A stretch of DNA of 64,000 nt from Steroidobacteraceae bacterium (GCA_035504335.1 DATJSD010000065.1:76-64075); one strand, 5' to 3'; counted from the first letter of the stretch, positions 1 to 43,388 are shown. A program made the numbers and translations. The notes: generated from the letters alone by a model not told the origin.

Positions 1-1136
1 TGCTGGTGGATGCCTCCGCGGTCACCGTGGCGCGCAGCCTGCACGCATTGTCGCCCGCCATCGAGCAGATCGTGAGCTTCGTGCCCCTGGCGCTGGAATC
101 GCGCCTGCCGGAATCCACGCCCCACCTGCTCTCGGTACTGGCCAGCCGAGCCTTGCTGCCGACATGCATCTACCTGGCCTGCGATGAGTTTGCTCTGGTG
201 GAGGGATGGCATCGGGAGCTGGAATTGGCCTACCGCACACTGGCGGTGGGTTGTCCGTTGATCCTGCGGGTCCGCCATCCCGACGTGACCGCCAGCGAGC
301 AGTCACTGCTCGCCGAAGAGGAGGCTCTCGACGTCGCGCCGCGGATGATTCACGACGCCTATCTGGAGCGTTGGCGACTTTCCGGACAGGCGGGTGGCGC
401 GACGACGGTGGACTGGGAGTCGTTGGCTTACGAATATCAGGAGGACAACCGCGCCGCAGCCGATCACTATTGGGTGAAGGCACGAGAGCTGGGATTTCTC
501 ATCGGGCAGGGCCACGCGGCCGCAGAGGCGGTGCTGCCGTCCGTGCCGCTCGAGCCGTCCGCGCCACTCGAGCCGCTCGCTCGCGCCGAGCATCGTCGCT
601 GGGTCGCCAGCCGGGCGCTGGCCGGGTGGCATTTCGGCGCACGACGAGACGATATGGCGAAGATCCATCCTGACCTGCAGCCCTGGGCCGCGCTGAATGA
701 GGCTGAGCGAGAAAAGGATCGTGACATCGTGCGAAGCACGGCCAGCGTGCTGCAGGCAGCCGGCTACCGCCCGAGGCCGATCTACCGGTTTTCCTGGCCG
801 CATCGGAGCGGCACGGCGCTCCGGCGCGAGGTTCGCACGGAACTGGCCGCCGCGGCAGTCTCCCAGGCGAGCGCGCACGCCCCCGCCGCGGTCGCGAATG
901 TAACGGTGCGCGTGGAGGATGCGATAACCTATGAGTGCGCCCAGGCATTGGGGGAACATCCGGGGCTGACGGTGTCGCTGGTGGTGTCGCGTTCTCTCGC
1001 GGGCCTGGCGGTGGCTGCGGGCAGTTCGACGCTTGCGGCAAACCGCCTCGCCGAGCGGGCGTGGGAGCTGTGGGATGTACCCGAAGACCAGGTCGAGCAG
1101 GTCATGGGTCGCTGGCCAACCTTGCGGCTGACGTAA
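1..1136 (+). CDS. RyR-domain protein, 5' end outside window
   Basis: ORF track 6..1136; the frame is open to the window edge, so the N-terminus is missing. EHRRWVASRALAGWHFG..KIHPDLQPW..LNEAEREKDRDIV fits the RyR repeat-domain consensus. A weaker copy precedes it (IHDAYLERW..WESLAYEYQEDNRAAADHY..LGF). Confidence 0.6.
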   Translation, partial: LVDASAVTVARSLHALSPAIEQIVSFVPLALESRLPESTPHLLSVLASRALLPTCIYLACDEFALVEGWHRELELAYRTLAVGCPLILRVRHPDVTASEQSLLAEEEALDVAPRMIHDAYLERWRLSGQAGGATTVDWESLAYEYQEDNRAAADHYWVKARELGFLIGQGHAAAEAVLPSVPLEPSAPLEPLARAEHRRWVASRALAGWHFGARRDDMAKIHPDLQPWAALNEAEREKDRDIVRSTASVLQAAGYRPRPIYRFSWPHRSGTALRREVRTELAAAAVSQASAHAPAAVANVTVRVEDAITYECAQALGEHPGLTVSLVVSRSLAGLAVAAGSSTLAANRLAERAWELWDVPEDQVEQVMGRWPTLRLT

Positions 1137-1160
1137 GCGACCGCTCACGGACAGGGCCTG

Positions 1161-2894
1161 ATGCGCTATCTAATGGCAGTGCTTGGCTTGCTGACAGCTC
1201 TGGCCGGGCCCATCGCCAATTCCCAGAGCTTTACGCGCCAACCGCATGCGAACGAGCTGGAGCACAGCTTTTATCCGAATGGCACACACGTGCTGATCAT
1301 CTGGGTAGCCCGCTACGCCCATCCGGAGGTCTGGCCGGATCTGCAGACGGCAGTTGACGCCAGCCGCATTCACGACCTTTTCATGGGTCGTGGTCTGCCG
1401 GGGTCGGATGTCCTGTCCGTGGGGCTGCCGGAATCGGCGGATGCGAGCGCCATCATGGGAGCCATACATGCCTTTGCAAGAACGCTGCCGCCCGAGGATC
1501 CCCGCGACGGCATACGGCATGGCCTGCGGGTAGTAGTCTATTTTGCGGGTCACGGTTATTCGAGAGGCGTGCAAGCGGGTCCTGAGCGATTCATCGGCTC
1601 GCACGGATACGCCGACTCGAGTGTGGGTTATCTGGTGCCGCCGAATGCAACCGACCCCGGCCGACTCAGCAGCGATGATCTGCGCACCATGATGGTGCCG
1701 CAGGCGGACTTCCTGAAGGCCGTGGGCAGCCTCAACGCCAGTGCGACGCTGGTGCTGTTGGACGCATGCTTCTCGGGTCTGGGTCTGGAGAACCTGCAGC
1801 AGGACGCGGGGACAGTGCCGCCGCTGAGTCCTGCTGAGCCGCAACGGGTGTTTCAGGTCATCACCGCCGGACAGGCCGACAGGACCGTGCCCGATGATAA
1901 TGTGTTCTCGGAACTGGTCGCCGCGGGACTCGACGGCGCCGCGGATCTCAACTTCGATGGACTGATCACGGGGACGGAGCTTGGAGAGTACCTTCGCGTT
2001 CGCATGACGGAGGAGTCCATCCGCGCCGGCCGCGTCCAGCAGACGCCACTGTTCGAGACCTACGTCGGTCCGGATATCCAGTACGCAGCGCCAGGTGAAA
2101 ACGAATTCGTCTCTCCCCAGCAGCTTCCCTTTCGGGCGGCGGTGAATTCAGTGTCAACGCCAGCACAGTTGCGTACGTTCCGTGACTGCGCTCTGTGTCC
2201 ATCCCTGCGGATTGTTCCGCGTCCACCGGGTGAGGTTGGCACCAACAGGTATCTTGCCATGGGTGTCACGGATGTCACGGCCGAGCAGTATGAGGCGTGC
2301 TTTCGCGCGGGCGGGTGTCTGCACTGGCCCAAGTCGGCGACGGACGGCTCGGGTCTGAAGCCCGTGACGGACGTCAACCGGAATGATGCTCTGGCGTATA
2401 CGAGCTGGCTGTCGTGCATGACGGGCAAGCGCTACCGCCTCCCGGCCAACTCCGAGTGGCAATACTTTGCAGCCGCCGACGCCCGGCGGTTGTCCGCGGG
2501 ATCGATCTCGAGAGCAGCACGAGCCGCCTGTCGCGGCTGCGGCAGCCTCTGGGACGGGCGCACGGCGGCGCCGGTGGCGTCTTTTCCGGCGGATGACTTC
2601 GGATTATTCGACGTGCTGGGAAATGTCTGGCAGTGGATGGGAGACTGCAGTGACAGCGATGGGGAGCGAGCCTGCAATCAGATGGGGCAGGTGCGCGGAG
2701 GCGCATTCACGACACGCCTCAGTGCCGTGGTGTCCCTACCCGTCGGGCGGCTTGCCTCGCGGGTGCGCGACAACAACATCGGCTTTCGCGTGGCACGCGA
2801 CATCGCAACGGTGAGTGCCGTGCGGATGGATTGCCAGGCCAGAGCGGGCCCCGCGCGATCCCCGATCGACACCATGCGCTCCGCATCAAAGTGA
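1161..2894 (+). CDS. exported caspase-like (peptidase C14) protein fused to an FGE-sulfatase/SUMF1 domain
   Basis: 577 aa. Signal-like N-terminus MRYLMAVLGLLTALAG. Caspase His/Cys dyad contexts YFAGHGYS and LVLLDACFSG. C-terminal FGE-fold motifs RYRLPANSEWQY, FGLFDVLGNVWQWMGDC, VRGGAF, NIGFRVARD. Confidence 0.8.
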   Translation: MRYLMAVLGLLTALAGPIANSQSFTRQPHANELEHSFYPNGTHVLIIWVARYAHPEVWPDLQTAVDASRIHDLFMGRGLPGSDVLSVGLPESADASAIMGAIHAFARTLPPEDPRDGIRHGLRVVVYFAGHGYSRGVQAGPERFIGSHGYADSSVGYLVPPNATDPGRLSSDDLRTMMVPQADFLKAVGSLNASATLVLLDACFSGLGLENLQQDAGTVPPLSPAEPQRVFQVITAGQADRTVPDDNVFSELVAAGLDGAADLNFDGLITGTELGEYLRVRMTEESIRAGRVQQTPLFETYVGPDIQYAAPGENEFVSPQQLPFRAAVNSVSTPAQLRTFRDCALCPSLRIVPRPPGEVGTNRYLAMGVTDVTAEQYEACFRAGGCLHWPKSATDGSGLKPVTDVNRNDALAYTSWLSCMTGKRYRLPANSEWQYFAAADARRLSAGSISRAARAACRGCGSLWDGRTAAPVASFPADDFGLFDVLGNVWQWMGDCSDSDGERACNQMGQVRGGAFTTRLSAVVSLPVGRLASRVRDNNIGFRVARDIATVSAVRMDCQARAGPARSPIDTMRSASK

Positions 2895-2920
2895 CTTGCA
2901 CCGAAGCCGGGGAACTACCG

Positions 2921-4291
2921 ATGTCAACGCAGACAGCCGTACCTACTGCGCCTGTGGTTTCACGGCCGGGCTCGAAACCTCGCAGTGCGCGGCTCTGGGG
3001 GCTGGGCCTCGCGGCGGTGATCGCCGCCGCGTGCCCCGGGGCTTGGGCGCAGCCCGCGCCAGATAAATCACCCTCGCCGGGCGGTGGTGGAACGATTCAG
3101 GCGGCCCGCGGGCTCGGCTTTTCAATCGAGTCGGAGATGCTGACGTATCGGGCGCTCGAGTCTAATAGCGTTGCGGTCGCGTGCGATGTCGCGGGCTATC
3201 TGCGCGGCGCGAGCGTGGATTTCAACGCTCAAACCCCTGGGGAATGCGCGCTGAACGGGGCCAGCACGGCCACCGCAAGCGTGATCGTCGCGCCGTTCGA
3301 TAGCTCCGCCTTCGAGAACTTCCGGGTCTGGCGGAGCGAGATGATGCTCATGCGCGAGCTGCACGATCGGGCGCAGCCATTGTGTCCGGAGGCGGGGCGC
3401 GGTCTGGCGAAGCAGCTGGCCCAGTCTGCGCTCTCGGCGGCCATCCCCGGAGGAGGTTCCTTGCTATCCCTCGCGCAGGGGTTGTTGGGGATCGGCGCGG
3501 CCAACCCCGGCACCGTCACGCCCGTAGGCGGCACGATCCAGGATCAGGCTTTCATGGACGCCGTGGCTCGCCAGCTGCACAGGCTGCATATCGTGGTGCT
3601 GATGCCCTCGACCTATGCTCCGTTCGACATCTCGGCGCCCGCTGCGCAGGAATCACCGTTTGTTTCAGGTGTGATGCAACTTCTGGATCTGCGCGCCTGT
3701 CTGGTGCGACAGGAAGCGGGTGATCTCGCCAAGGACCCGGACGCAACCAATGTCCGACAGCTGGTCGGCGATATCGATGCCTACGTCGGGGCCCTCCAGG
3801 GCTTTGGTGCCTCGCCTGTGAGCGATGCCACACCCGGCAGCCCAGCCGGCCGGGACTTGAGCGGCAAGAAGGCGGATGCCGGTGCCGTTTCGGTTTCCGT
3901 TTGGAGTGCGCCGCCGACTCTGCTGCTCGCGGTGCTGTCCGGTGACGGATTCGCTCAGGAGCTCGGCGTCAGCCCGACGACCGGCCTGCTGGCGATCGAT
4001 GAGAACTCGCCGCACGTGCTGCTGGTAAAGGCATTGGAATCGGGTGGCAGCGTGGCAACCTCCCGCGGCGGGATGCTGAGGAAATCGGAAACGCATTACA
4101 GCGGTGGCGCGGTGGGGACCTTTGCGATGTTCAGGTTGAACGGCGAGCTCGAATGCTCCGGGAACGTCTATGACTACGGCGACTCGGGCGACTCGGGCAA
4201 CTTCGCGCAGGGCATGCGCGCCTACCAGCCTGCGCCTGCCAAGCAGTACATCTTCCAACAGGGCAGTTGCCAGCGCGCGGCCGGTCAGTGA
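2921..4291 (+). CDS. hypothetical exported protein, no family recognised
   Basis: In-frame ATG at 2921, 26 nt after the upstream stop; the track start 2831 would overlap the upstream gene. Signal-like RSARLWGLGLAAVIAAACPGAWAQ. 456 aa with no recognisable motif. Confidence 0.55.
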   Translation: MSTQTAVPTAPVVSRPGSKPRSARLWGLGLAAVIAAACPGAWAQPAPDKSPSPGGGGTIQAARGLGFSIESEMLTYRALESNSVAVACDVAGYLRGASVDFNAQTPGECALNGASTATASVIVAPFDSSAFENFRVWRSEMMLMRELHDRAQPLCPEAGRGLAKQLAQSALSAAIPGGGSLLSLAQGLLGIGAANPGTVTPVGGTIQDQAFMDAVARQLHRLHIVVLMPSTYAPFDISAPAAQESPFVSGVMQLLDLRACLVRQEAGDLAKDPDATNVRQLVGDIDAYVGALQGFGASPVSDATPGSPAGRDLSGKKADAGAVSVSVWSAPPTLLLAVLSGDGFAQELGVSPTTGLLAIDENSPHVLLVKALESGGSVATSRGGMLRKSETHYSGGAVGTFAMFRLNGELECSGNVYDYGDSGDSGNFAQGMRAYQPAPAKQYIFQQGSCQRAAGQ

Positions 4292-6078
4292 CCCCGGCGG
4301 GGGAAGTGCATGATCGTCCAGGGCACGCGCCGCCCGGTCGCAATGGCGTTCCCCTGCTGATCGGTATCACCGGGCATCGCGACCTCGTGGAGCGGCAGAT
4401 TCCGCAGATCAGGGCGCTCCTGCGCAGCCTGCTGCAACGGCTGTCGGACGAGTACCCGTCCGTAGGCGCTGTGCTACTCACCTCGATGGCCGAAGGCGCC
4501 GATCTGCTGGCCGCGGAGGTGGCCATGGAGCTGGGAATCGCGACGACCTGCATCCTGCCTCACCCCGTCGCCGAAGCGCGTGCCAGCCTGGAGTCCGACT
4601 CCTCGCGACAGCGCTTCGATCAGATCTACCAGCGATCCAGCCACGTAAATATCGACGCAATGGTAGAGCTGCACCACGAGCGCATCGGCGAGGAGGCGCC
4701 AACCCACGAACGTCGCTTTCAGATCGCCGGGGCTGTCGTTGCACGCTTCAGCACCCTGTTGATCGCCGTATGGGACGGCAGACGCACGGCCCGTGCCGCC
4801 GGTACGGCTTGGGTGGTGGACTACCGCCGCCGCGCGCTCGGAGTCAGCGCGGCCCACGCGCCTCTCCCGGACGTTGACCTGTTGAGCGTCGACGACAACG
4901 ACCTCGTCTATGAGATCCGCTGCTCCCGTCGATCGCGGCCGGACCCCGAGGACGCCATCGCGGTGCAAGCCATGGGCTTCAGCGGACGCGGCGTGACCCA
5001 TGCGTGGGAGCTGCCGCGCAGCCTGCATCTGGTCCTGCAGCGCATGGAGGATCTCAATGAGGACATCGCGCGGTTCGCGGTGAATATCGCCGCCGAAAGC
5101 CGCAGTCTCTCCCCGCCGCACACCACCCCGCCATCACACCTGCGGCGTCTGGATGAGCTGTTTCGCGCAGTCGACTGGTTGGGCGAGCACTATCAACGCT
5201 GGTTCAATCAGACGTTGCGGATGCGCTATGCGCTCTGGGCGGCGATGGCGCTGCTGCTGGTTTCCTTCAAGAAGGATTCCCTGGGACCTTTCGGCATCGC
5301 GGCCATCGCCGGTGTCCTTGCGCTGTTCGGCGCGGGCTTCGCGCTTTCGCGATGGGCGCACCATCATGACTGGCACCGCAAGTACCTGGACTACCGGGCC
5401 CTGGCAGAGGGTCTCAGAGTGGAATTCTACTGGGAGCTGGCCGGCATCGAGCGTCACCCCGAGGGCGAGCTTGCTCACGAGGCCTTCCTGCAACGGCAGG
5501 ACATCGCGTTGCAATGGATCAGAGTGACCATGCGCACGGCCCGGCTGCGACTGGCGATTGAACGCACTCCCCCGACTCCGGACGGACTCGCCCACGCGGT
5601 AGCGGGCGGGATCGGGGCCGAAGAGCACCGCCAACCCGCCGGTCAACTGCGCTATTACCATACGGTCGTCGAGCGCTGCGAGCGTCGCGTGCGGATGCTC
5701 GAAGCGATCAAGGTCGCATTGCTGGCGGGCGGCTTGCTGTTGGCCGTTGTGTTCGCGGTGGAGCTCCTCGCGGTACGCGCACATCACAGCGGCTTCCCGG
5801 CGGCCACGCGTGAGCGCCTGCTGTTTGCCCTCGCGTTGCTGCCCGCCTTCGCCGCGATCTTTGATACCTACGTGGATCAAAAGGCCGATCGCGTGCTGCT
5901 GCGACAGTACCGTCACATGCGCGCACTGTTCCGCATCGCCAATCGCGAGTTGCGGGCCACCCGCTCGGATGCGGCCCGCAAGGGCATCCTCCGCTCGTTG
6001 GGGCATGCGTGTCTGGCCGAGCACGCTCAATGGGTACTCGGGTATCGGGACAAGCGCATAGAAGGACTGCGCTGGTAG
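4267..6078 (+). CDS. SLOG-like Rossmann domain fused to two SLATT-like 2TM modules (membrane protein)
   Basis: 603 aa. N-terminal LLIGITGHRDL and LLTSMAEGADLLAAEVAMELG resemble YpsA/DprA/LOG (SLOG) motifs. The C-terminal half has two pairs of hydrophobic helices, each followed by a charged helix (WHRKYLDYRALAEGLRVEFYW; VLLRQYRHMRALFRIANREL). An alternative GTG start at 4288 overlaps the upstream TGA. Confidence 0.6.
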   Translation: MPARGRSVTPAGEVHDRPGHAPPGRNGVPLLIGITGHRDLVERQIPQIRALLRSLLQRLSDEYPSVGAVLLTSMAEGADLLAAEVAMELGIATTCILPHPVAEARASLESDSSRQRFDQIYQRSSHVNIDAMVELHHERIGEEAPTHERRFQIAGAVVARFSTLLIAVWDGRRTARAAGTAWVVDYRRRALGVSAAHAPLPDVDLLSVDDNDLVYEIRCSRRSRPDPEDAIAVQAMGFSGRGVTHAWELPRSLHLVLQRMEDLNEDIARFAVNIAAESRSLSPPHTTPPSHLRRLDELFRAVDWLGEHYQRWFNQTLRMRYALWAAMALLLVSFKKDSLGPFGIAAIAGVLALFGAGFALSRWAHHHDWHRKYLDYRALAEGLRVEFYWELAGIERHPEGELAHEAFLQRQDIALQWIRVTMRTARLRLAIERTPPTPDGLAHAVAGGIGAEEHRQPAGQLRYYHTVVERCERRVRMLEAIKVALLAGGLLLAVVFAVELLAVRAHHSGFPAATRERLLFALALLPAFAAIFDTYVDQKADRVLLRQYRHMRALFRIANRELRATRSDAARKGILRSLGHACLAEHAQWVLGYRDKRIEGLRW

Positions 6079-6172
6079 CCGCCCGCTGCTCGAGCGGCCC
6101 CACTTCTACGAGTTCCGAGCCGGCGGCGAGCATCTGCCTGGGCTGCGGCCGACGGCGTGCCCCGCAGGCTCG

Positions 6173-6304
6173 TCAGCCGCCGGTATCCACCGTCGTGCCG
6201 CGGATGATGTTCTTCAGCGCAACCGCCCAACCCGACAGCAGCAGGGCGGACGAGGCGATGACCACGAACCAGTAGAAGGCTTTGGTCCTGATCTTATTCA
6301 GCAC
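6173..6304 (-). CDS. small single-TM protein (43 aa), absent from the ORF track
   Basis: Hand translation gives V(M)LNKIRTKAFYWFVVIASSALLLSGWAVALKNIIRGTTVDTGG*. GTG start, one clear hydrophobic helix, below the 60-aa track cutoff. Confidence 0.35.
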   Translation of the reverse strand: MLNKIRTKAFYWFVVIASSALLLSGWAVALKNIIRGTTVDTGG

Positions 6305-6432
6305 GGGAATCGCTCTTCTGGTCAGTGAGTGGGCTGATCATCATAGCATCGATCATCGGTCGGCCGCAGCCGCCCCTGGTCAGTCGCCCGCGCGCAAGTC
6401 GGCCCCGGGCAGCGCGCGCCTCCCGCGCTGCG

Positions 6433-7329
6433 TCAGCACACCATCAGGCGATGGCCGTCCGGATCGATCAGTTGGCGCGGCGCCGCGCCCGGTCGCTCGC
6501 CGGCGAACACCAGCCGCGTGGCAGCGACATCGTTGGAGTGGCCGTGGGCAGCGCCCACGGTGCTCCTGCCGGCCTGCCCGGTACCAGGCCCGGTACCGGG
6601 CCCGGTACCGGGCGCCGGCGCGCGGTAACACAGCAGCTCGAGGTGCGGGGGCGCCTGTGCGGTGCTGAGCGCGGTCACCTCCACCCGCACCTCTTCCAGG
6701 CCGTCGAGCCGCTGCTGCTCGGGCCCCTGATTGATCGATCGGGCGCTCACCTGCAACCCGAGGTTCTCGTAGAAGGCGATGCTGCGCGAGCTGTCCGCGA
6801 CCACGATCGCCGAGTGATCGATGCCACGAAACAGCATCGCGGCGCGGGCGGGTACCGCGACGGGCGCGGACGGTGATGCCGGAAACTCGAGCAGCTCCAG
6901 CGGATGGCCATCCGGATCGCGGAACTTGAACGCCGTCACGCCGCCGGAGCTGGCCGGCAGGCGCTGCGGCCCGTGCGTGGAGATCGCCGCCCAGCCGGCG
7001 ACCTGCCGCAGATGCGCGTACGCGCGCTGCATGTCCTCGACGACGATGGCGAAGTGCTGAAAGCGCAGATCGCAGGCCGAAACGCCCGGCGGGTAGCCGC
7101 GCCCCAGGGCGACGGGTTGCAGCAGCTGGAGCTGCTGCGCCCCGAGGCGCAGCAAGACGCTGTGCGCGGCGCCGCGCACGCCCGCGAGGCGTGTGGCCGT
7201 CGCCTCGGTGAGCATCTCGCTCGCCACGACACGGCAGCCGCAGGCGTCCTGGTAGAACTGCGCGAGTCGCGCCGCATCGGGGCTGATCAGACACAGCCGC
7301 GTGAGGCGCACGGCCCTGCCGCTGCTCAC
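6433..7329 (-). CDS. VOC (glyoxalase/bleomycin-resistance/dioxygenase) family protein, tandem domains
   Basis: Repeated VOC modules: FQHFAIVVEDMQRAYAHL..FKFRDPDGHPLELLEF; IDHSAIVVADSSRSIAFYENLG..PHLELLCY; LIDPDGHRLMV. The GTG start at 7329 overlaps the upstream TGA (GTGA). The track start 7536 lies inside the upstream gene. Confidence 0.8.
   Translation of the reverse strand: MSSGRAVRLTRLCLISPDAARLAQFYQDACGCRVVASEMLTEATATRLAGVRGAAHSVLLRLGAQQLQLLQPVALGRGYPPGVSACDLRFQHFAIVVEDMQRAYAHLRQVAGWAAISTHGPQRLPASSGGVTAFKFRDPDGHPLELLEFPASPSAPVAVPARAAMLFRGIDHSAIVVADSSRSIAFYENLGLQVSARSINQGPEQQRLDGLEEVRVEVTALSTAQAPPHLELLCYRAPAPGTGPGTGPGTGQAGRSTVGAAHGHSNDVAATRLVFAGERPGAAPRQLIDPDGHRLMVC
6577..6612. repeat. 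12-bp in-frame tandem repeat (3 copies) in the VOC gene
   Basis: cccggtacc(a/g)gg at 6577, 6589 and 6601, encoding PGTG repeats on the minus strand. Confidence 0.9.
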
Positions 7330-12627: not shown

Positions 12628-12777
12628 GGGCAGGCCGGGATTCAGGAGGCAGCATGCGGCAGCATAGCGCAGCCGAGCCGGCTGGGGCGTTGTCCTACAG
12701 CCTGCGGTGGTGGGGTCGGAAAGCCCTCTGCCGTTTTCCGCCGTTATCCTTGGATTCGATTGTCGAGCCAGCCACCC

Positions 12778-14943
12778 ATGTCCGCGACGCCTGAGCGCAA
12801 ACCCGAGCCGCTCGCCGAGCCCGCTGGTGACGAGGCGGACCCGCTGCGCGCCCTGGTCGACGCGATGCTCAGTGGGACGTACCGTGAGGAGTTCTACCTC
12901 TGGGACGTCGCCTCGCTGTGCCGCTCCAAGCCGGAGTTCGCGCGGCAATTGCTGGCGCTGATCGACCGCTATCAGCGCCTCGGACAGATGCCGGCCGCCC
13001 AGCATCGGCGCATCCGCCAGAGGATCGAGTCCAGCGTGACCTGGAGCGACGAGCGCCGGCCGGTCGGGCGCGGCCCGTGCGGCGAAGCCCAGCGCGGCGC
13101 ATCCCCTGACGGCGCGGCCCGCGCCGCGTCCGGTCCCACGCAGGACGCCTGGCCCGCGGCACTGGCCGATCTCACGATGACCACGCCGTTGCCCGCAGCC
13201 CCGGCGGTGGCTGCCTCCGCGGCGCCCGATACACCCGCGGCCCCGGCTGCGCTCGATGCACCCGACACGCCCGCCGCGTCCGCTGCGTCCGCTGCGCCCG
13301 CCGGCGGACCCGGGGTGATGGCCGCGGCACCGGGTCCGGGCGGGGTGCTGCGCGGCCGCTATGAGCTGCAGAGCCTGCTCGGCTCGGGCGGCATGGCCTC
13401 GGTCTACAAGGCCGTGGATCGCTATCGCTCGAGCCTGGGCCTGGAAGACTGTTACGTTGCGATCAAGATCGTCAATGCGCAGCGGGCGCAGCCGGCGGCC
13501 GTGACGGCGCTCGGACGCGAGTTCCATCATGCACAGCGGCTGTCGCATCCCAATGTGGTCAACGTCTACGAGATCGACCACGAGGGGGAAGCGAGCTTCT
13601 ACACGATGGAGCTGCTCGAGGGCGAGCGGCTCAGTCAGCTCTGCGAGCGTATCGGCGGGGCATTGCCGCCTCGTCAGGCGCTCGCGATCATCCGCGACAT
13701 CGGCTCGGCCATCGCGCACGCGCACTCGCGCGCGGTGGTGCACGGGGACCTGAAGCCCCACAACATCTTCGTCACTGTCGGCGGACAGATCCGGGTGCTG
13801 GATTTCGGCGGTCTCAGTCCGTCGCTGCCCGAGGTGCGGGAGGGGGAGCCCACGCTCGACGGCGAGCCTCGCGGCTACCGCGCCGCCACGCCCGCGTACG
13901 CCAGCTGCGAGCAGCTCGAGGGTCGGCGAGCCGAGCCATCCGACGACATCTATGCGCTGGCCTGCATCGCCTACGAGCTGTTCACCGGCCAACATCCTTA
14001 CGAGGGCAAATCCTCGCTGGGCGCGAGGGCGCAGCGGCTGCGGCCTCGCCGGCCGCATCGGCTGGGCGCGCGCGGCTGGCTTGCGCTGCGTCGGGCGCTG
14101 TCCTGGCAGCGCGAGCGCCGCCCCGCGCAGATCGGGCCCTGGCTCGAGCGCCTCGGCGTCGCGGCCGCGGTCGAGCATCTGCCCCCGTCCTACCAGCTGC
14201 GCTCGGTGGAGCCGCCACGGCTCTGGCCCACACGCCTGGCCGCCGCGGCGCTGGTGATGTGTCTCGCTGCGCTGACCGTCGCGATCACGCGCAGGGACGG
14301 GCTCTACTGGCCTCGCGTGCTCGCGTCCGCCGCGGCCACGCTGCACGCCGGCCGATACGCTGCACCGGCCACGACCACGGCCGCGGCCACGGCCACGGCC
14401 ACGACGACGGCCGCGGCCGGCGGGGGATCGGGTGTGCGCGCGGCGGCCGCGCCGCAAGCGCCGCAAGCGTCGCCCGACGCGCAGCCCCCGCCGGTACCGC
14501 AGCCGCCGCGCGCGGCCTCCCATCCGGCGGGGGTGCTCTTGCCGGTCAGCGCGGCCCCGGCCCGGCCCGCGCGCGCTGCCGGACGGACGGCCTCCGTGGC
14601 CCATCTCGGCGTTGCATTCGCCGCCTCCCACTATGCGGTCGACGATAACGCGCCGGCCGCGCGCCTGGTCGTGCGACGCACCGGCCGCTCGCGTGGCAAC
14701 GTGCGGTTCGTATGGTGGACCGTGCCCGACTCGGCCAAGGCCGACGTGGACTATGCGCCGCTCGGCCTGCGCACCGAGCTCATTCCAAGCGGCCAGAGGG
14801 ACCTGACGATCTACGTGCCGATCATCTCCAACCCCCTGCGACACAAGACCGCGACCTTCTACGTCGCGCTCGGTCCGGCGGACGCCTCCGACAGGAACGT
14901 GCCGGTGGCGCGGGCGAGCGTGACGATCGAGCGCGGGGATTAG
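12778..14943 (+). CDS. transmembrane Ser/Thr protein kinase with C-terminal Calx-beta-like domain
   Basis: ATG at 12778, in frame with track ORF 11971..14943. Hanks kinase motifs GSGGMASVYKA, VAIK, HGDLKPHNIF, VLDFG, PAYASCEQ. TM segment LAAAALVMCLAALTVAI. C-terminal FAASHYAVDDN..VVRRTG..GNVRFVWWT..AKADVDY..DLTIYVPI fits the Calx-beta pattern. Confidence 0.8.
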   Translation: MSATPERKPEPLAEPAGDEADPLRALVDAMLSGTYREEFYLWDVASLCRSKPEFARQLLALIDRYQRLGQMPAAQHRRIRQRIESSVTWSDERRPVGRGPCGEAQRGASPDGAARAASGPTQDAWPAALADLTMTTPLPAAPAVAASAAPDTPAAPAALDAPDTPAASAASAAPAGGPGVMAAAPGPGGVLRGRYELQSLLGSGGMASVYKAVDRYRSSLGLEDCYVAIKIVNAQRAQPAAVTALGREFHHAQRLSHPNVVNVYEIDHEGEASFYTMELLEGERLSQLCERIGGALPPRQALAIIRDIGSAIAHAHSRAVVHGDLKPHNIFVTVGGQIRVLDFGGLSPSLPEVREGEPTLDGEPRGYRAATPAYASCEQLEGRRAEPSDDIYALACIAYELFTGQHPYEGKSSLGARAQRLRPRRPHRLGARGWLALRRALSWQRERRPAQIGPWLERLGVAAAVEHLPPSYQLRSVEPPRLWPTRLAAAALVMCLAALTVAITRRDGLYWPRVLASAAATLHAGRYAAPATTTAAATATATTTAAAGGGSGVRAAAAPQAPQASPDAQPPPVPQPPRAASHPAGVLLPVSAAPARPARAAGRTASVAHLGVAFAASHYAVDDNAPAARLVVRRTGRSRGNVRFVWWTVPDSAKADVDYAPLGLRTELIPSGQRDLTIYVPIISNPLRHKTATFYVALGPADASDRNVPVARASVTIERGD

Positions 14944-16992: not shown

Positions 16993-16999
16993 TGCCCGT

Positions 17000-17130
17000 G
17001 ATCGGCAGCAGTACTCGGCATCGCCGACGTGTGTAGATATGGAGACCCTTCAGGAGAATACGTTTAACGTATTCTCCTGAAGGGTCTCCGTATCTACACG
17101 GGTTGCATACGCCGGGTACTGCTGCCGATC
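17000..17130. repeat. 131-bp nested palindromic element at a convergent gene junction
   Basis: The outer 15-bp inverted repeat is perfect (17000-17014 vs 17116-17130). The inner 34-bp arms (17031-17064 vs 17066-17099) have one T/G mismatch. The inner arms are AT-richer and carry CTTCAGGAGAAT. Confidence 0.85.
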
Positions 17131-19051
17131 AGGGGATGAACACCCCGTCGCGGTCGATCGCCCCGATGCGGCGCAGATAGCGGATGATCTGCTCGGCCGC
17201 CTGCTCGGGGCGGGTGTCGCGCGTATCGATGTGGATCTCCGGATTCTCCGGCGGCTCATACGGGGAATCGATGCCGGTGAAGTTGCGGATGTCGCCGGCG
17301 CGCGCGCGGCGGTACAGGCCCTTGGGGTCGCGCCTTTCGGCCTCCTCCAGCGGCGTATCGATATAGATCTCGCAGAACTCGCCCGGACCGAGCAGCGAGC
17401 GCGCCAGGCGCCGCTCGGCGCGGAACGGCGAGATGAACGACACCAGCACGATCAGCCCGGCGTCGGTCATCAGACGCGCCACCTCGCCCACGCGGCGGAT
17501 GTTCTCGACGCGGTCCGCATCGGTGAATCCCAGGTCGCGACACAGTCCGTGGCGTACGTTATCGCCGTCGAGCAGGTAGGTGTGCCGCCCCATGCTGTAC
17601 AGGCGCTTCTCCACCAGGTTGGCGACGGTGGATTTGCCCGCGCCCGACAGTCCCGTGAACCACAGCACGCAGGCCTTCTGACGCTTCTGCTCCGAGCGCG
17701 CCGTCTGGTCGATGTCCAGCGCCTGCCAGTGCACGTCCTGCGCGCGGCGCACCGCGCCGTGCAGCAGCCCGGCGCCGACGGTGCCGTTGCTGATGCGGTC
17801 GATCAGGATGAAGCCGCCGGTGTCGCGGTTCTGCTCGTAGGGGTCGAAGGCCAGCGGCTGGTCGGTGCTCACGTGCACCAGACCGATCTCGTTCAGCTCC
17901 AGCTGGCGTGCCGCGAGTTTCTCCAGCGTGTTGACGTTGATCTTGTGCTTGAGCGGGGCGAGGGTCGCCGACACGGTGCGCGTACCGCACTTGAGCAGGT
18001 AGGGCCGGCCGGGCAGCATCGGCTCCTCGCTCATCCACACCACCGTCGCCTCGAACAGCTCGCCCACCGCCGGCGGGGCGGCGGCCGCCGCCAGCATGTC
18101 TCCGCGGCTGATGTCGATCTGCTCCTGCAGCACCAGCGTGACCGACTGACCGCTCTGCGCGTGCTGCACCTCGCGCTCACCGATCAGGATGCGCGCCACG
18201 TGGCCGCTCAGCCCCGAGGGCAGCACCACCAGCGGATCCCCGACGCGTACGCTGCCGCCGACGATCAGACCCGCATAGCCGCGAAACTCCTGATTGGGTC
18301 GGTTCACCCACTGCACCGGCATGCGCAATGCCTGTGCGCCCGCGGGCCGCAGCGCCGGCACACGCTCCAGATGAGCCAGCAGCGTCGGCCCGGTGTACCA
18401 GGGCATGCGCCCGCCGGCCTCGATGACGTTGTCGCCGCGCAGCGCCGACAGCGGCATCGCCACGATGTCGGTGAGACCGATCTGCGCGGCGAAGTCACGG
18501 TAGTCCTGCTCGATGCTGCGGAACACCGGCTCGGCGTACCCGACCAGGTCCATCTTGTTGACCGCGAGCACCACGCGCCGGATGCCCAGCAGCGCGCACA
18601 GGTAGCTGTGCCGCCGCGTCTGCGTGAGCACGCCCTTGCGCGCGTCCACCAGGATGATCGCGAGCTCCGCGGTCGAGGCCCCGGTGACCATGTTGCGCGT
18701 GTACTGCTCGTGCCCGGGAGTATCGGCCACGATGAACTTGCGGTGCGGCGTGGCGAAGAAGCGGTAGGCCACATCGATGGTGATGCCCTGCTCGCGCTCG
18801 GCGGCCAGGCCATCCACCAGCAGCGCGAAATCCAGCTCCCCGCCCTGCGTGCCGAGGCGGCGCGAGTCGCGCTCGAGGGCGCTCAGCTGATCCTCGAACA
18901 GCGCGCGCGACTCGTACAGCAGCCGGCCGATGAGCGTGCTCTTGCCGTCATCGACGCTGCCGCAGGTGATGAAGCGCAGCAGGTCCTTGTCCGCCTGCGC
19001 CGCGAGCCATGCGTCCAGCTGCGGCGGCAGCGGATTCGGTTCGGCATTCAT
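17129..19051 (-). CDS. cysN: bifunctional sulfate adenylyltransferase subunit 1 / adenylylsulfate kinase
   Basis: 640 aa. GTPase motifs [18 protein letters not shown]. The C-terminal APS kinase part has [11 protein letters not shown]. Confidence 0.92.
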
Positions 19052-38366: not shown

Positions 38367-39055
38367 GCCGACCCCGAGCCCCACGCGCAGCCCCCGCCGC
38401 GCGCGGCGCGCGCGCACACCCCGGCAAGGCGAAGGCCGCCCCGACCCGTGCCGCCCCGACCCGTGCCGCCACGACCCGTGCCGCCACGACCCGCGCCGCA
38501 CGCCCGCCACGCGCCGCCCCGACCCGTGCCACCCGCCCGACCCGCGCGGCCCCCGTGCCTCGCGCCGCCGCGCCCCGCCGCGCGGCGGTGGCCGGCGTCG
38601 CGCTCGGGTCCCCGGTGGCGGATTTCTCGCTACCCGCCACCGGCGGGGCGGACTGGCGCCTGTCCGGGGCCCTGGGCCGCAAGCTGGTGGTGTACTTCTA
38701 CCCGCGCGACAACACGCCGGGCTGCACGCTCGAGGGCCGTGATTTCGCCGCGCTCGCGGCGCGCTTCGCCGCCGCCGGCACCGACATCGTGGGGATCTCG
38801 CGCGACAGCCTCGCCTCGCACGAGAAATTTCGCGACAAGATGGCCTTCCCGTTTCCGCTGCTGTCCGACGCCGACGAGACGATTTGCCGGCAGTTCGACG
38901 TCATCCGGCAAAAGCATCTGTATGGCCGCTCCTTCCCGGGCATCGAGCGCAGCACCTTCCTGCTCGACGCGCACGGGGTGCTGCGCCGCGAGTGGCGCAA
39001 GGTGCGGGTGAGCGGACACGCGCAAGCGGTGCTGGCAGCCGCCGAATCGTTGTGA
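38363..39055 (+). CDS. bcp: thiol peroxidase Bcp (peroxiredoxin) with basic Ala/Pro/Thr/Arg-rich N-terminal extension
   Basis: The ATG at 38363 overlaps the gcvR TGA (ATGA). The Prx core begins near PVADFSLP and includes VVYFYPRDNTPGCT. An alternative GTG start at 38588 would remove the extension. Confidence 0.8.
   Translation: MSRPRAPRAAPAARGARAHPGKAKAAPTRAAPTRAATTRAATTRAARPPRAAPTRATRPTRAAPVPRAAAPRRAAVAGVALGSPVADFSLPATGGADWRLSGALGRKLVVYFYPRDNTPGCTLEGRDFAALAARFAAAGTDIVGISRDSLASHEKFRDKMAFPFPLLSDADETICRQFDVIRQKHLYGRSFPGIERSTFLLDAHGVLRREWRKVRVSGHAQAVLAAAESL
38435..38494. repeat. 15-bp in-frame tandem repeat (4 contiguous copies plus degenerate copies to about 38545)
   Basis: gccgcc(c/a)cgacccg(t/c) units at 38435, 38450, 38465 and 38480. 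They encode A-A-P/T-T-R pentapeptides. Confidence 0.9.
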
Positions 39056-42437: not shown

Positions 42438-43385
42438 ATGCCCAGATTCCCGTCGACCACCGCGCTCGTCGTGACGCTGCTCGGGCTGAGCGGCTGCGCC
42501 ACGCTGCCGGCGGGCAAGCCCGCCCCGGGGGATCCGTGGGAGCGCATGAACCGCTCGATCTGGAGCTTCGACAACGCCTTCGATCACGCGCTGCTGCGAC
42601 CGGTGGCGAGCGGCTACGTGCGCTATACCCCTGCGCCCGTACGCCACGGGGTGCATAACTTCATCACCAACCTGACGTACTCGGACACGGTGGTCAACGA
42701 CCTGCTGCAGGGGAAGTTCAACGACTGCGCCAGCGACGTCGCACGGCTGGTGGTCAACAGCGTGCTGGGCGTCGGCGGGCTGCTCGATCCGGCCTCCCAC
42801 ATGAATCTGGGCCTGCACGATACGGACTTCGGCCAGACGCTGGGCATCTGGGGGCTGCACCGCGGACCGTTCCTGATGCTGCCCTTTCTGGGCCCCTCGG
42901 ATGTGCGCGACACCTTCGGACTGGCGGGCGACACCTACCTCGAGCCCTATCCCTACATTCCCAATCAGTACGCCAGCTGGGGGGTGTACCTGGTCGGCAA
43001 GGTCGATGAGCGCTCCGGGCTGCTCGCGGAGGATCAGTTGATCGACAGCGCCTACGACTCGTATGCCTTCGTGCGCAACACCTATCTGCAGCAGCGCGAA
43101 TTCAAGGTGCACGGCAGCCAGCCGGAAACCCCCGAGCAGCTGTTCCCCGGGGCGGATCTGGGCCCGAGCACCCCTGCGCCTGCCCCTGCGCCCGCGCCTG
43201 CGCCGCAGGGCGCAGCGGCTCCGCCGAGCGCTGCGCCATCGCCGAGCGCTGCGCCATCGCCGAGCGCGGCGCCATCGCCGAGCGCGGCGCCATCGCCGAG
43301 CGCGGCGCCCCCGCCAGGCGCGGCACCCCCGCAGGGCGCGGCGCCCGCGCCGGGCGCGGCGCCGGGCGCAACGCCCCCGCGGTGA
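42438..43385 (+). CDS. mlaA: MlaA/VacJ family outer-membrane lipoprotein
   Basis: ATG at 42438. Lipobox LLGLSGC. DPWERMNR, FN..LLRP.A..Y, NDLLQGK, GPFLMLPFLGPS. C-terminal PSAAPS repeat tail. Confidence 0.88.
   Translation: MPRFPSTTALVVTLLGLSGCATLPAGKPAPGDPWERMNRSIWSFDNAFDHALLRPVASGYVRYTPAPVRHGVHNFITNLTYSDTVVNDLLQGKFNDCASDVARLVVNSVLGVGGLLDPASHMNLGLHDTDFGQTLGIWGLHRGPFLMLPFLGPSDVRDTFGLAGDTYLEPYPYIPNQYASWGVYLVGKVDERSGLLAEDQLIDSAYDSYAFVRNTYLQQREFKVHGSQPETPEQLFPGADLGPSTPAPAPAPAPAPQGAAAPPSAAPSPSAAPSPSAAPSPSAAPSPSAAPPPGAAPPQGAAPAPGAAPGATPPR
43223..43312. repeat. 18-bp in-frame tandem repeat (5 copies) at the mlaA 3' end
   Basis: gccgagcgc(t/g)gcgccatc units at 43223, 43241, 43259, 43277 and 43295. 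Confidence 0.9.
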
Positions 43386-43388
43386 GCA

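Follow-up and report, generated by a model that had tools for sequence, protein, structure and literature searches.

The first 6,078 nucleotides (nt) of a 64,000-nt stretch of DNA from a Steroidobacteraceae metagenome-assembled genome (GCA_035504335.1 DATJSD010000065.1:76-64075; the whole stretch is called the window here) carry four plus-strand open reading frames (ORFs), ORF1 to ORF4, which fill positions 3 to 6078. In order, they encode a RyR-domain protein, a predicted exported fusion of a caspase-like domain with a formylglycine-generating enzyme (FGE)-like domain, a predicted exported cysteine-rich protein, and a protein that, in its structural model, joins a SLOG fold to two SLATT-like membrane modules. 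We give an even chance to the reading that these genes are the downstream portion of a conflict cluster that is linked to STAND proteins, was acquired by horizontal transfer, and belongs to the abortive-infection or programmed-death type. The window would then hold the effector half of such a system, which we infer to be a variant of the STAND/TIR-linked nucleotide-signaling conflict systems rather than a wholly new category. A role in conflict or as a membrane effector had been put forward in an original prediction made for this DNA, and it is still the best reading of the four genes. It is built on gene structure, domain and fold content, an intact caspase dyad, export signals, and the conservation of both the cluster and its pairwise links.

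Related loci, reached from homologues of ORF3 and ORF1, showed that the cluster occurs in at least five independent places with its gene order shuffled. In another Steroidobacteraceae genome (L065/L066, equal to L119), a divergent nSTAND1-TPR gene is followed by genes for an exported caspase of 743 amino acids (aa), a RyR protein of 706 aa, a caspase-FGE fusion, an ORF3 homologue, and an ORF4 homologue; the L065 proteins are 50, 55, 50, and 31% identical to ORF1, ORF2, ORF3, and ORF4 of the window, respectively. The order in L071/L072 is ORF4 homologue, C14 caspase, RyR, caspase-FGE, and ORF3. In L153, a C14 caspase gene is divergent from a RyR and caspase-FGE pair, with nSTAND1-TPR and ORF4-homologue genes nearby and no ORF3. 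ORF3 is likewise missing from L151/L152 and from L154, where RyR, caspase-FGE, and nSTAND1-TPR genes are followed by one for a 389- to 390-aa protein with four membrane helices. This four-helix protein (L151 9598-10767 and L154 13577-14749; the copies are 73% identical and have weak SLATT_1/DUF4231 matches) stands after nSTAND1-TPR in the place of the ORF4-type protein, referred to below as SLOG-4TM for its SLOG fold and four transmembrane helices.

Across these loci, the invariant core consists of the RyR and caspase-FGE genes, which abut or have an overlapping start and stop, together with nSTAND1-TPR and an exported caspase roughly 700 aa long; ORF3 and SLOG-4TM are often added to it. Every complete relative has an nSTAND1-TPR protein with a DUF4062-like N-terminus (nSTAND1-TPR was seen in L065, L151, L153, and L154) and a second exported caspase, and the set of six in complete relatives comprises the DUF4062-like/nSTAND1/TPR sensor, the ~700-aa exported caspase, the RyR protein, caspase-FGE, ORF3, and the SLOG-2x SLATT-like protein. 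The earlier statement that no STAND NTPase is present is correct for the window itself, in all six frames, but does not extend to the system, since the complete relatives all carry one. The N-termini of the nSTAND1-TPR proteins gave consistent weak matches to DUF4062 (E values of 2e-4 to 0.27) and match the PADLOC candidate PDC-S60, and the second caspase passes curated cutoffs (Peptidase_C14, 52.9 bits; PADLOC caspase, E = 3.7e-15). Because the gene set is kept despite rearrangement, we argue for a functional link among its members. The proposal that the four genes form one unit is borne out by the recurrence of the same set in changed order in L065/L119, L071/72, and L153, and the co-occurrence of caspase-FGE and RyR genes elsewhere, which had been suggested as a check, was found as well: homologues of ORF2 (40 to 64% identity) always come after a RyR gene in the related loci.

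Identities among the L065, L071, and window proteins are 50 to 64% for ORF1 to ORF3. The window ORF4 belongs to a clade (clade A) that is 43 to 75% identical to the copies beside TIR or STAND-TPR genes; ORF4 itself shares about 50% identity with such copies and only about 32% with the clade-B SLOG-4TM proteins of the other RyR clusters (L066 9387-11135, L071 1789-3510, and L153 10303-12042), which suggests that one paralogue was swapped for another in place. In two loci of Armatimonadota (L057 and L058), a gene for a K+-channel/TrkA_N/RyR protein lies directly upstream of a SLOG-4TM gene. A further gene beside the RyR, caspase-FGE, and nSTAND1 cluster of L154 (14785-17078, running off the locus) was called with a 1,425-aa product that matches Pfam TIR_2/TIR and the type VI secretion sheath proteins VipA and VipB; the fusion is unusual, and the given coordinates contain stop codons on translation, so the gene model is provisional.

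The layout of the window genes likewise points to a single transcript. ORF1 (3 to 1136) is the C-terminal 377 aa of a reading frame that is open at the window edge, ORF2 (1161 to 2894) encodes 577 aa, ORF3 (2921 to 4291, with an ATG start at 2921) encodes 456 aa, and ORF4 (4288 to 6078, with a GTG start at 4288) encodes 596 aa. The coordinates reproduce those proposed originally for four codirectional ORFs: the ORF1/ORF2 gap is 24 nt, with the Shine-Dalgarno-like stretch GGACAGGG, the ORF2/ORF3 gap is 26 nt, and both gapped starts have a purine-rich Shine-Dalgarno-like stretch 5' of them. Two starts had been offered for the overlapping last junction; we took GTG 4288, which is also used by the public gene call P0001 (596 aa) and overlaps the ORF3 TGA (4289 to 4291) as GTGA. 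The two gaps and the 4-nt start/stop overlap indicate cotranscription. No promoter-like site was found inside positions 1 to 7000, and terminator-like sites were not in excess there. The 5' part of the operon lies outside the window, as had been noted, and its end is cut by the assembly, because only about 25 more codons exist upstream of ORF1: the ORF1 sequence recurs unchanged in an NCBI entry of 402 aa, “RyR domain-containing protein, partial” [Steroidobacteraceae bacterium], from a 64,377-nt contig (P0241), whose end lies about 75 nt upstream of the window. The public contig L001 begins at window position 3, and the contig of P0241 begins about 75 nt earlier.

The AlphaFold2 model of ORF4 (predicted local distance difference test score [pLDDT], 81; predicted template modeling score, 0.83; pLDDT above 90 over aa 21 to 120) places a domain with a SLOG fold at about nt 4351 to 4992. 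In Foldseek searches, the N-terminal ~145 aa matched ShosA (8zva), DprA (4ljr, 5mll, and 3uqz), the MoCo (molybdenum cofactor) carrier protein 2iz7, and TM1055 (1rcu), each with a probability of 1.00 and E values of 3.5e-3 to 8e-2. Matches to the type II LOG protein 5wq3 were weaker (probability, 0.38 to 0.44; E = 0.59), and those to TRPM chains (0.41 to 0.51) had a very high root mean square deviation. Three glycine- or alanine-containing motifs are invariant in 38 family sequences, namely G26, G29, H30, R31, and D32 (GxxGHRDL), G70-A71-D72-L73 (GADL), and A171-G172-T173-A174 (AGTA); judged from this alignment, the Gly-rich motifs may be ligand-contact loops. Toward the C-terminus, the model has four hydrophobic helices and long helices at aa 283-327/334-360 and 452-497/505-531, and the SLATT feature of a two-helix membrane hairpin with a helical cytoplasmic region is present twice (about nt 5134 to 5562 and about nt 5641 to 6075). 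A second SLATT feature, a nucleotide-signaling partner, has its counterpart in the fusion of these hairpins to a SLOG fold and in the TIR or DUF4062 genes described below.

Profile matches of ORF4 all remained below threshold: YAcAr (E = 0.022; 15 bits against a cutoff of 28.2), DUF4231 (E = 0.006; 17.4 bits against 24.7), Pfam SLATT_1 (E = 0.02), NCBIfam SLATT_3 (E = 3e-4; 20.8 bits against 45), and NCBIfam SLATT_1 (E = 7e-4). Subthreshold matches recurred across the family, to YAcAr in 18 of 38 members (best, 9e-4) and to DUF4231 in 23 of 38 (best, 7.6e-4). A profile search of PDB sequences with ORF4 returned nothing. The assignment of SLOG-like and two SLATT-like parts is therefore upheld by the structure search and the two modeled hairpins, whereas every curated hidden Markov model (HMM) cutoff is missed; we retain the subthreshold caspase, SLOG, and SLATT calls of this report because of the His/Cys pair, the structure search, and the same weak matches across homologues. 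The ORF4 family, for which there is no Pfam model, is large: its representative clusters number 8,043 when E ≤ 1e-3 is required and 1,231 when E ≤ 1e-30 is, and most are full length.

A genome scan yielded 57 ORF4-family loci, spanning Steroidobacteraceae, other Gammaproteobacteria, Eremiobacterota, Armatimonadota, Thermoplasmatales archaea, and others. Neighbors were counted by six-frame searches in 51 loci with at least 3 kb of flank (drawn from the genome scan, plus four found before it). Of the 51, 27 have a TIR or DUF4062 gene no more than 5 kb away, mostly immediately adjacent, and another 8 have nSTAND1-TPR, for a combined 35 of 51 with TIR-like or STAND-TPR genes. The architectures of these neighbors include ThsB-type TIR-TPR, a second TIR-TPR family, TIR-NPHP3_N STAND, TIR-WD40, and DUF4062-AAA-TPR, the last in L055 and L063 with E values of about 2e-13.

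Several other genes recur beside ORF4 homologues. A legumain-type Peptidase_C13 gene (about 463 aa) lies directly upstream on the same strand in L013-L016, L021, and L043, and a trypsin gene (about 450 aa) directly downstream on the same strand in L033, L035, L037, L040, and L048; ORF4 homologues that lack TIR neighbors often have the C13 gene, and others have the trypsin gene. A protein of about 290 to 430 aa is encoded beside the TIR-TPR or nSTAND1-TPR partner in L002 (5386-6276), L005 (3431-4291), L010 (6868-7938), and 5 more loci, with a PEP-CTERM domain in L005 and a weak NIDO match in L010. Within Steroidobacteraceae (L002/L003, L004, and L008), clade-A ORF4 is found at a syntenic position, with a comM-like Mg-chelatase gene on one side and cytochrome c, acyl-carrier, and ketoacyl-synthase genes on the other; nSTAND1-TPR and a gene for a protein of about 300 aa are inserted beside it in some genomes and absent in others.

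ORF1 was confirmed as a RyR protein, with a Pfam RyR match above the gathering score (E = 1.9e-13; 50.9 bits against 27.4) at aa 189 to 255, or about nt 567 to 767. Full-length relatives of 560 to 706 aa, among them the L065 homologue with its 3 to 4 N-terminal membrane helices and GxGxxG-type motif, consist of such helices, a GxGxxG-type Rossmann-like segment, the RyR domain, and a conserved C-terminal region, and in profile-profile comparison the family is homologous over ~400 columns to K+-channel/TrkA_N/RyR proteins (probability, 99.9%; E = 5e-35). By homology, ORF1 is the C-terminal part of a membrane-anchored Rossmann-like/RyR-domain protein. A universal pairing of RyR with SLOG-4TM was considered and rejected: in L155 (4149-7423), a TrkA_N-RyR gene is followed by one for an unrelated exported, Cys-rich, lipoprotein-like protein of 455 aa, which matched no family and resembles neither ORF3 nor ORF4. 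Pairs of a RyR protein and an exported Cys-rich protein may be a wider theme.

ORF2 has a predicted signal peptide (about nt 1161 to 1223), a caspase region (about nt 1293 to 2060), and an FGE-like domain (about nt 2232 to 2798). The caspase motifs are intact and in the right order, YFAGHG with the His at aa 127 to 132 (nt 1539 to 1556) and DACFSG with the Cys at aa 201 to 206 (nt 1761 to 1778), and both are kept in the L065 homologue. The corresponding profile matches are below threshold, with Peptidase_C14 at E = 0.0054 (16.9 bits against a Pfam gathering score of 21.4) and NCBIfam caspase_w_EACC1 at E = 5.6e-9 (35.8 bits against 140). FGE-sulfatase of Pfam matched strongly (E = 4.7e-24; 85.9 bits against 23.3), and the closest solved relative of this domain is PvdO (5hha; E = 1.7e-12), which we take to lack the FGE catalytic residues and not to be a formylglycine-generating enzyme. 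The C-terminal segment RGGAFTTRLSAVV has no cysteine where true FGEs have their catalytic Cys pair (its position being that in human and bacterial FGEs), and the cysteine count is zero in the C-terminal segment containing VRGGAFTTRLSAVVSLPVGRL. Of the exported caspase-FGE fusion originally described, the dyad, the signal peptide, and the FGE domain held up, whereas the FGE catalytic cysteines are absent and the caspase match is subthreshold. On its motifs, ORF2 is an exported caspase-like protease with a noncatalytic FGE-like domain of the C-type-lectin fold, and by analogy this domain can be read as a lectin-fold binding module like the “FGS” domains of Kaur et al. 2020.

ORF3 had been regarded as an orphan, a view that no longer stands: at least 395 homologues of about 450 aa were found, although the protein matches nothing in Pfam, NCBIfam, PADLOC, or PHROG. 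Its signal peptide lies at about nt 2921 to 3049, and a hydrophobic N-terminal leader is present in all 42 aligned members; together with that of ORF2, this bears out the earlier claim of two components with export signals. The alignment has 47 invariant columns, 6 of them cysteine, and several long motifs that are nearly invariant. Neither the AlphaFold2 model (pLDDT, 70.6; no credible PDB fold match, best E = 0.38) nor a profile search of PDB sequences, which returned nothing, linked it to a solved structure. By six-frame searches of metagenomic loci with enough flank (n = 51), a C14 caspase was found within 1.5 kb of the ORF3 homologue in 31, in 12 upstream on the same strand and in 18 divergent; CHAT peptidases are neighbors in other loci. 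The homologue either diverges from the caspase gene or lies downstream of it at a distance of 25 to 39 nt, and the neighboring caspases whose N-termini were read (L065, L068, and two in L069) also carry export signals. From this linkage, ORF3 is an exported Cys-rich member of an uncharacterized family that appears to partner exported caspase-type peptidases.

The base composition sets the four genes apart, as had been noticed from the sequence. G+C is 65.8% in 1 to 6078 against 70.2% in the rest of the window, the lowest among 116 sliding windows of 6,078 nt, and G+C at third codon positions (GC3) is 0.73 to 0.79 in ORF1 to ORF4 against 0.876 ± 0.027 (minimum, 0.818) in 14 other window genes. 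A hand count of about 58% for positions 1161 to 1290 was accurate (57.7%), and the accompanying value of well over 70% elsewhere was a slight overstatement of the 70.2% measured. The low GC3 and the patchy spread across phyla fit horizontal transfer of the cluster.

In the mechanism that we envisage, the TPR/STAND protein would detect an invader and oligomerize, its TIR-like domain would convert NAD+ to ADP-ribose or a derivative, and the cytoplasmic SLOG domain of ORF4 would bind that nucleotide, driving the SLATT-like helices to permeabilize or depolarize the inner membrane. The Rossmann/RyR protein ORF1 may bind nucleotide too and would be another component of the membrane that responds to nucleotides or ions. 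The exported caspases would act in the periplasm, the lectin-like domain of ORF2 might select targets, and ORF3 could be a substrate, pro-effector, or regulator of these caspases. A more specific version, which we consider improbable, is a trans-envelope immune or suicide device in which a cytoplasmic NAD-derived signal, produced by a TIR-like STAND sensor, is read by a SLOG-gated SLATT pore and an RCK/RyR protein, whose opening licenses caspases in the periplasm to turn proteins of the ORF3 family, by processing, into an effector that acts on the envelope. If true, it would be the first caspase-type immunity executed outside the cytoplasm, and bacteria would have, side by side, the sensor modules that appear later in ADP-ribose-gated TRPM2 and ryanodine receptors.

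Parts of this scheme have precedents. In type I Thoeris, SLOG senses 3'cADPR, a cADPR-type signal, and the type VII Thoeris effector is a SLATT protein (bioRxiv 10.64898/2025.12.03.692087); ORF4 joins a SLOG sensor fold (compare the SIR2-SLOG protein ThsA of type I) to SLATT-like hairpins (compare ThsH of type VII), and many of its homologues stand directly beside TIR-domain genes. The likeness ends at the partners: the window has no TIR gene but a RyR membrane protein, exported caspases, and ORF3, and the TIR-like partners of the relatives are fused to TPR, WD40, or STAND and are not small ThsB-type proteins. “SLOG and 4TM” or “4TM SLOG” proteins are listed as a putative, unvalidated Thoeris effector class in the same study (bioRxiv 10.64898/2025.12.03.692087). 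The earlier statement that the cluster fits no named system accordingly holds insofar as no PADLOC model matches and was overstated insofar as the ORF4 architecture is so listed. An attempt to tie ORF4 to the “4TM SLOG” class through two published TIR sequences was discarded, as neither matched in any locus; the link is architectural only.

Avs proteins that are laid out as DUF4062-STAND-TPR have DUF4062, a TIR-like NADase, as their effector (bioRxiv 10.64898/2026.09.04.749371, 10.64898/2026.05.01.722283), and neither of these papers mentions SLOG or SLATT partners. The DUF4062-AAA-TPR neighbors of ORF4 homologues in L055 and L063 resemble such proteins (DUF4062 “NIR” NADase, e.g., PsAvs2), and the nSTAND1-TPR proteins of the RyR clusters share the layout, with a weak DUF4062-like N-terminus. 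Avs proteins, however, are described as single-gene NAD+ depleters, whereas the STAND protein here, whose gene is absent from the window, is linked to SLOG-4TM and proteases, and its NADase product would be read as a signal. The conflict systems of Kaur et al. 2020 (PMC7159879) repeatedly feature SLATT, STAND NTPases, and fusions of caspase with FGS, and caspase and FGE/lectin domains recur in STAND-centered ones (PMC7159879; Dore et al. 2024, PMC10907252). Shared with those systems are the placement of a caspase-superfamily peptidase N-terminal to an FGE-type lectin domain, the co-occurrence of STAND NTPases, TPR, TIR, and SLATT, and a modular swapping of components; different here are the export signals on both caspases and the lack of a MoxR-vWA pair, of EACC1 or other effector-associated adaptor domains, and of a diversity-generating retroelement. 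RyR (0 occurrences) and the ORF3 family go unmentioned in Kaur et al. 2020 (PMC7159879).

Protease and adjacent-substrate pairs, such as caspase-like peptidases with gasdermins or the type IV Thoeris effector, which is caspase-like, likewise link a clan-CD peptidase tightly to a conserved neighbor. ORF3, however, carries a signal peptide and six conserved cysteines; no relative of its fold was detected, and it is not gasdermin-like. It and the caspase are both predicted to act outside the cytoplasm. As for CBASS (cyclic-oligonucleotide-based antiphage signaling), no SMODS/CD-NTase domain was found in the four ORFs, the only part of the window scanned with Pfam, or among the genes listed for related loci.

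A number of observations weigh against a STAND-linked conflict cluster. Homologues of TIR, DUF4062, and nSTAND1 are absent from the six-frame translation of the whole 64-kb window, the upstream part of the cluster is not recoverable from the public contigs (L001 and P0241), and the flanks of the four-gene stretch are housekeeping genes and no defense island. PADLOC models match none of the four proteins, and PHROGs match only the RyR and FGE domains. The SLATT and SLOG HMM matches never exceed curated cutoffs, in ORF4 or in its homologues; ORF4 relatives on plasmids or phages were not found at the sensitivity of tblastn; and two “SLOG and 4TM” operons, likened to ORF4 by architecture only, gave no defense in E. 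coli (bioRxiv 10.64898/2025.12.03.692087). Clade-A ORF4 is syntenic in Steroidobacteraceae even without partner genes (L004), which is compatible with a housekeeping role, and every pairwise link is also seen by itself: ORF3 beside a caspase where ORF4 and RyR are lacking, ORF4 without caspases, and RyR with caspase-FGE where ORF3 is lacking. Within the mechanism, the coupling of a cytoplasmic nucleotide signal to periplasmic proteases is the weakest link.

The four genes could instead be separate modules that happen to be colocated, an alternative that we consider unlikely but still a serious contender. An extracytoplasmic proteolysis pair of caspase-lectin and ORF3 would then act on envelope or secreted proteins, next to a lineage-conserved, nucleotide-gated ORF4 with partners of its own. 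It would account for the ORF3-caspase pairs of Acidobacteriota that have no RyR or ORF4 gene, for the majority of ORF4 homologues that lack a caspase-FGE, ORF3, or RyR neighbor, for RyR with caspase-FGE but no ORF3 in L151 and L154, and for a window ORF4 of clade A that is only ~32% identical to clade B of the RyR clusters and looks swapped in. Mere colocation is harder to reconcile with all five genes standing together in L065, L071, and (without ORF3) L153 despite reordering, with the 24- and 26-nt gaps and the 4-nt overlap that indicate cotranscription, with the renewed adjacency of RyR and SLOG-4TM in a distant phylum (Armatimonadota), and with the replacement of a missing SLOG-4TM by another four-helix protein that has weak SLATT-like matches.

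More doubtful is a physiological, nonimmune device, in which the RCK/RyR protein and a SLOG-gated four-helix protein would make up a channel pair gated by nucleotides or ions. Membrane potential, responses to envelope stress, or cell death during development would be under its control, and the periplasmic proteases would be the output. The homology of the ORF1 family to K+-channel/TrkA_N/RyR proteins over ~400 columns would suit such a device, as would the near-universal, syntenic occurrence of clade-A ORF4 in Steroidobacteraceae beside comM-like and cytochrome c genes, with or without partners, and the CHASE4-PAS-GGDEF-EAL signaling proteins among ORF4 neighbors. In TRPM channels, a SLOG-type domain at the N-terminus is joined to a membrane channel, and in TRPM2 the SLOG-type region binds ADP-ribose; the weak Foldseek matches of ORF4 to TRPM chains (0.41 to 0.51), its SLOG-type domain with a membrane part, and the RyR repeat of ORF1 recall TRPM2 and ryanodine receptors. 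The membrane part of ORF4, however, is two SLATT-like hairpins and not a six-helix TRP channel, so the resemblance is architectural only. A conflict role is favored over a nonimmune one by the TIR-like or STAND-TPR genes, typical of immune systems, in 35 of 51 ORF4 loci, by the matches of their TIR domains to Thoeris ThsB-type models, and by hallmarks of conflict systems such as caspase, CHAT, legumain (C13), and trypsin neighbors, variable partners, and a patchy distribution over phyla; the stretch is also compositionally foreign to its genome.

Two further readings of ORF2, as a genuine formylglycine-generating enzyme that matures sulfatases or as a diversity-generating retroelement's variable target, are almost certainly wrong and were rejected: despite the strong Pfam match and the usual preference of such retroelements for FGE/lectin domains (PMC7159879, PMC10907252), the catalytic Cys pair position has no cysteines, the nearest solved relative is PvdO, no sulfatase is encoded among the four genes of 1 to 6078 or by the gene called downstream, the 3' end of ORF2 (2600 to 2894) has no direct or inverted repeat that could be a template in the 64-kb window, and reverse transcriptase is absent from the related-locus gene lists.

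Elsewhere in the window, a gene for a 721-aa Pkinase with a weak Calx-beta match (about 12742 to 14907; L001 12740-14905) lies downstream of the cluster beside a multiheme cytochrome c gene and is probably unrelated to it. A near-perfect hairpin at 16995 to 17135, with two 70-nt arms that are 86% complementary and 1 nt apart, sits between convergent genes ending at about 16992 (plus strand) and about 17129 (minus strand) and may be either a repeat element or a long terminator. At 38427 to 38511, between two called ORFs, a 15-nt unit (CGACCCGTGCCGCC-like) is repeated four times in tandem, and at 43186 to 43383, just upstream of an ORF starting near 43386, there are nine head-to-tail copies of an 18-nt unit (CGCCGAGCGC[T/G]GCGCCAT-like).

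Read as a STAND-linked conflict cluster, the stretch draws attention to three families without functional annotation, two of them large: the SLOG-4TM proteins, the exported Cys-rich ORF3 family, and the RyR/Rossmann membrane proteins. A literature search (RyR domain plus SLATT) found no paper linking RyR domains to such systems; with a RyR/Rossmann membrane protein related to RCK-gated K+ channels, the cluster suggests for bacterial RyR domains a concrete function that can be tested. Should the coupling proposed here be correct, it would add a new effector class to TIR/NADase immune signaling, the ADP-ribose made by Avs-like NADases could have a signaling role beyond that of a by-product of NAD+ depletion, and caspase-type proteolysis would shift to the periplasm.

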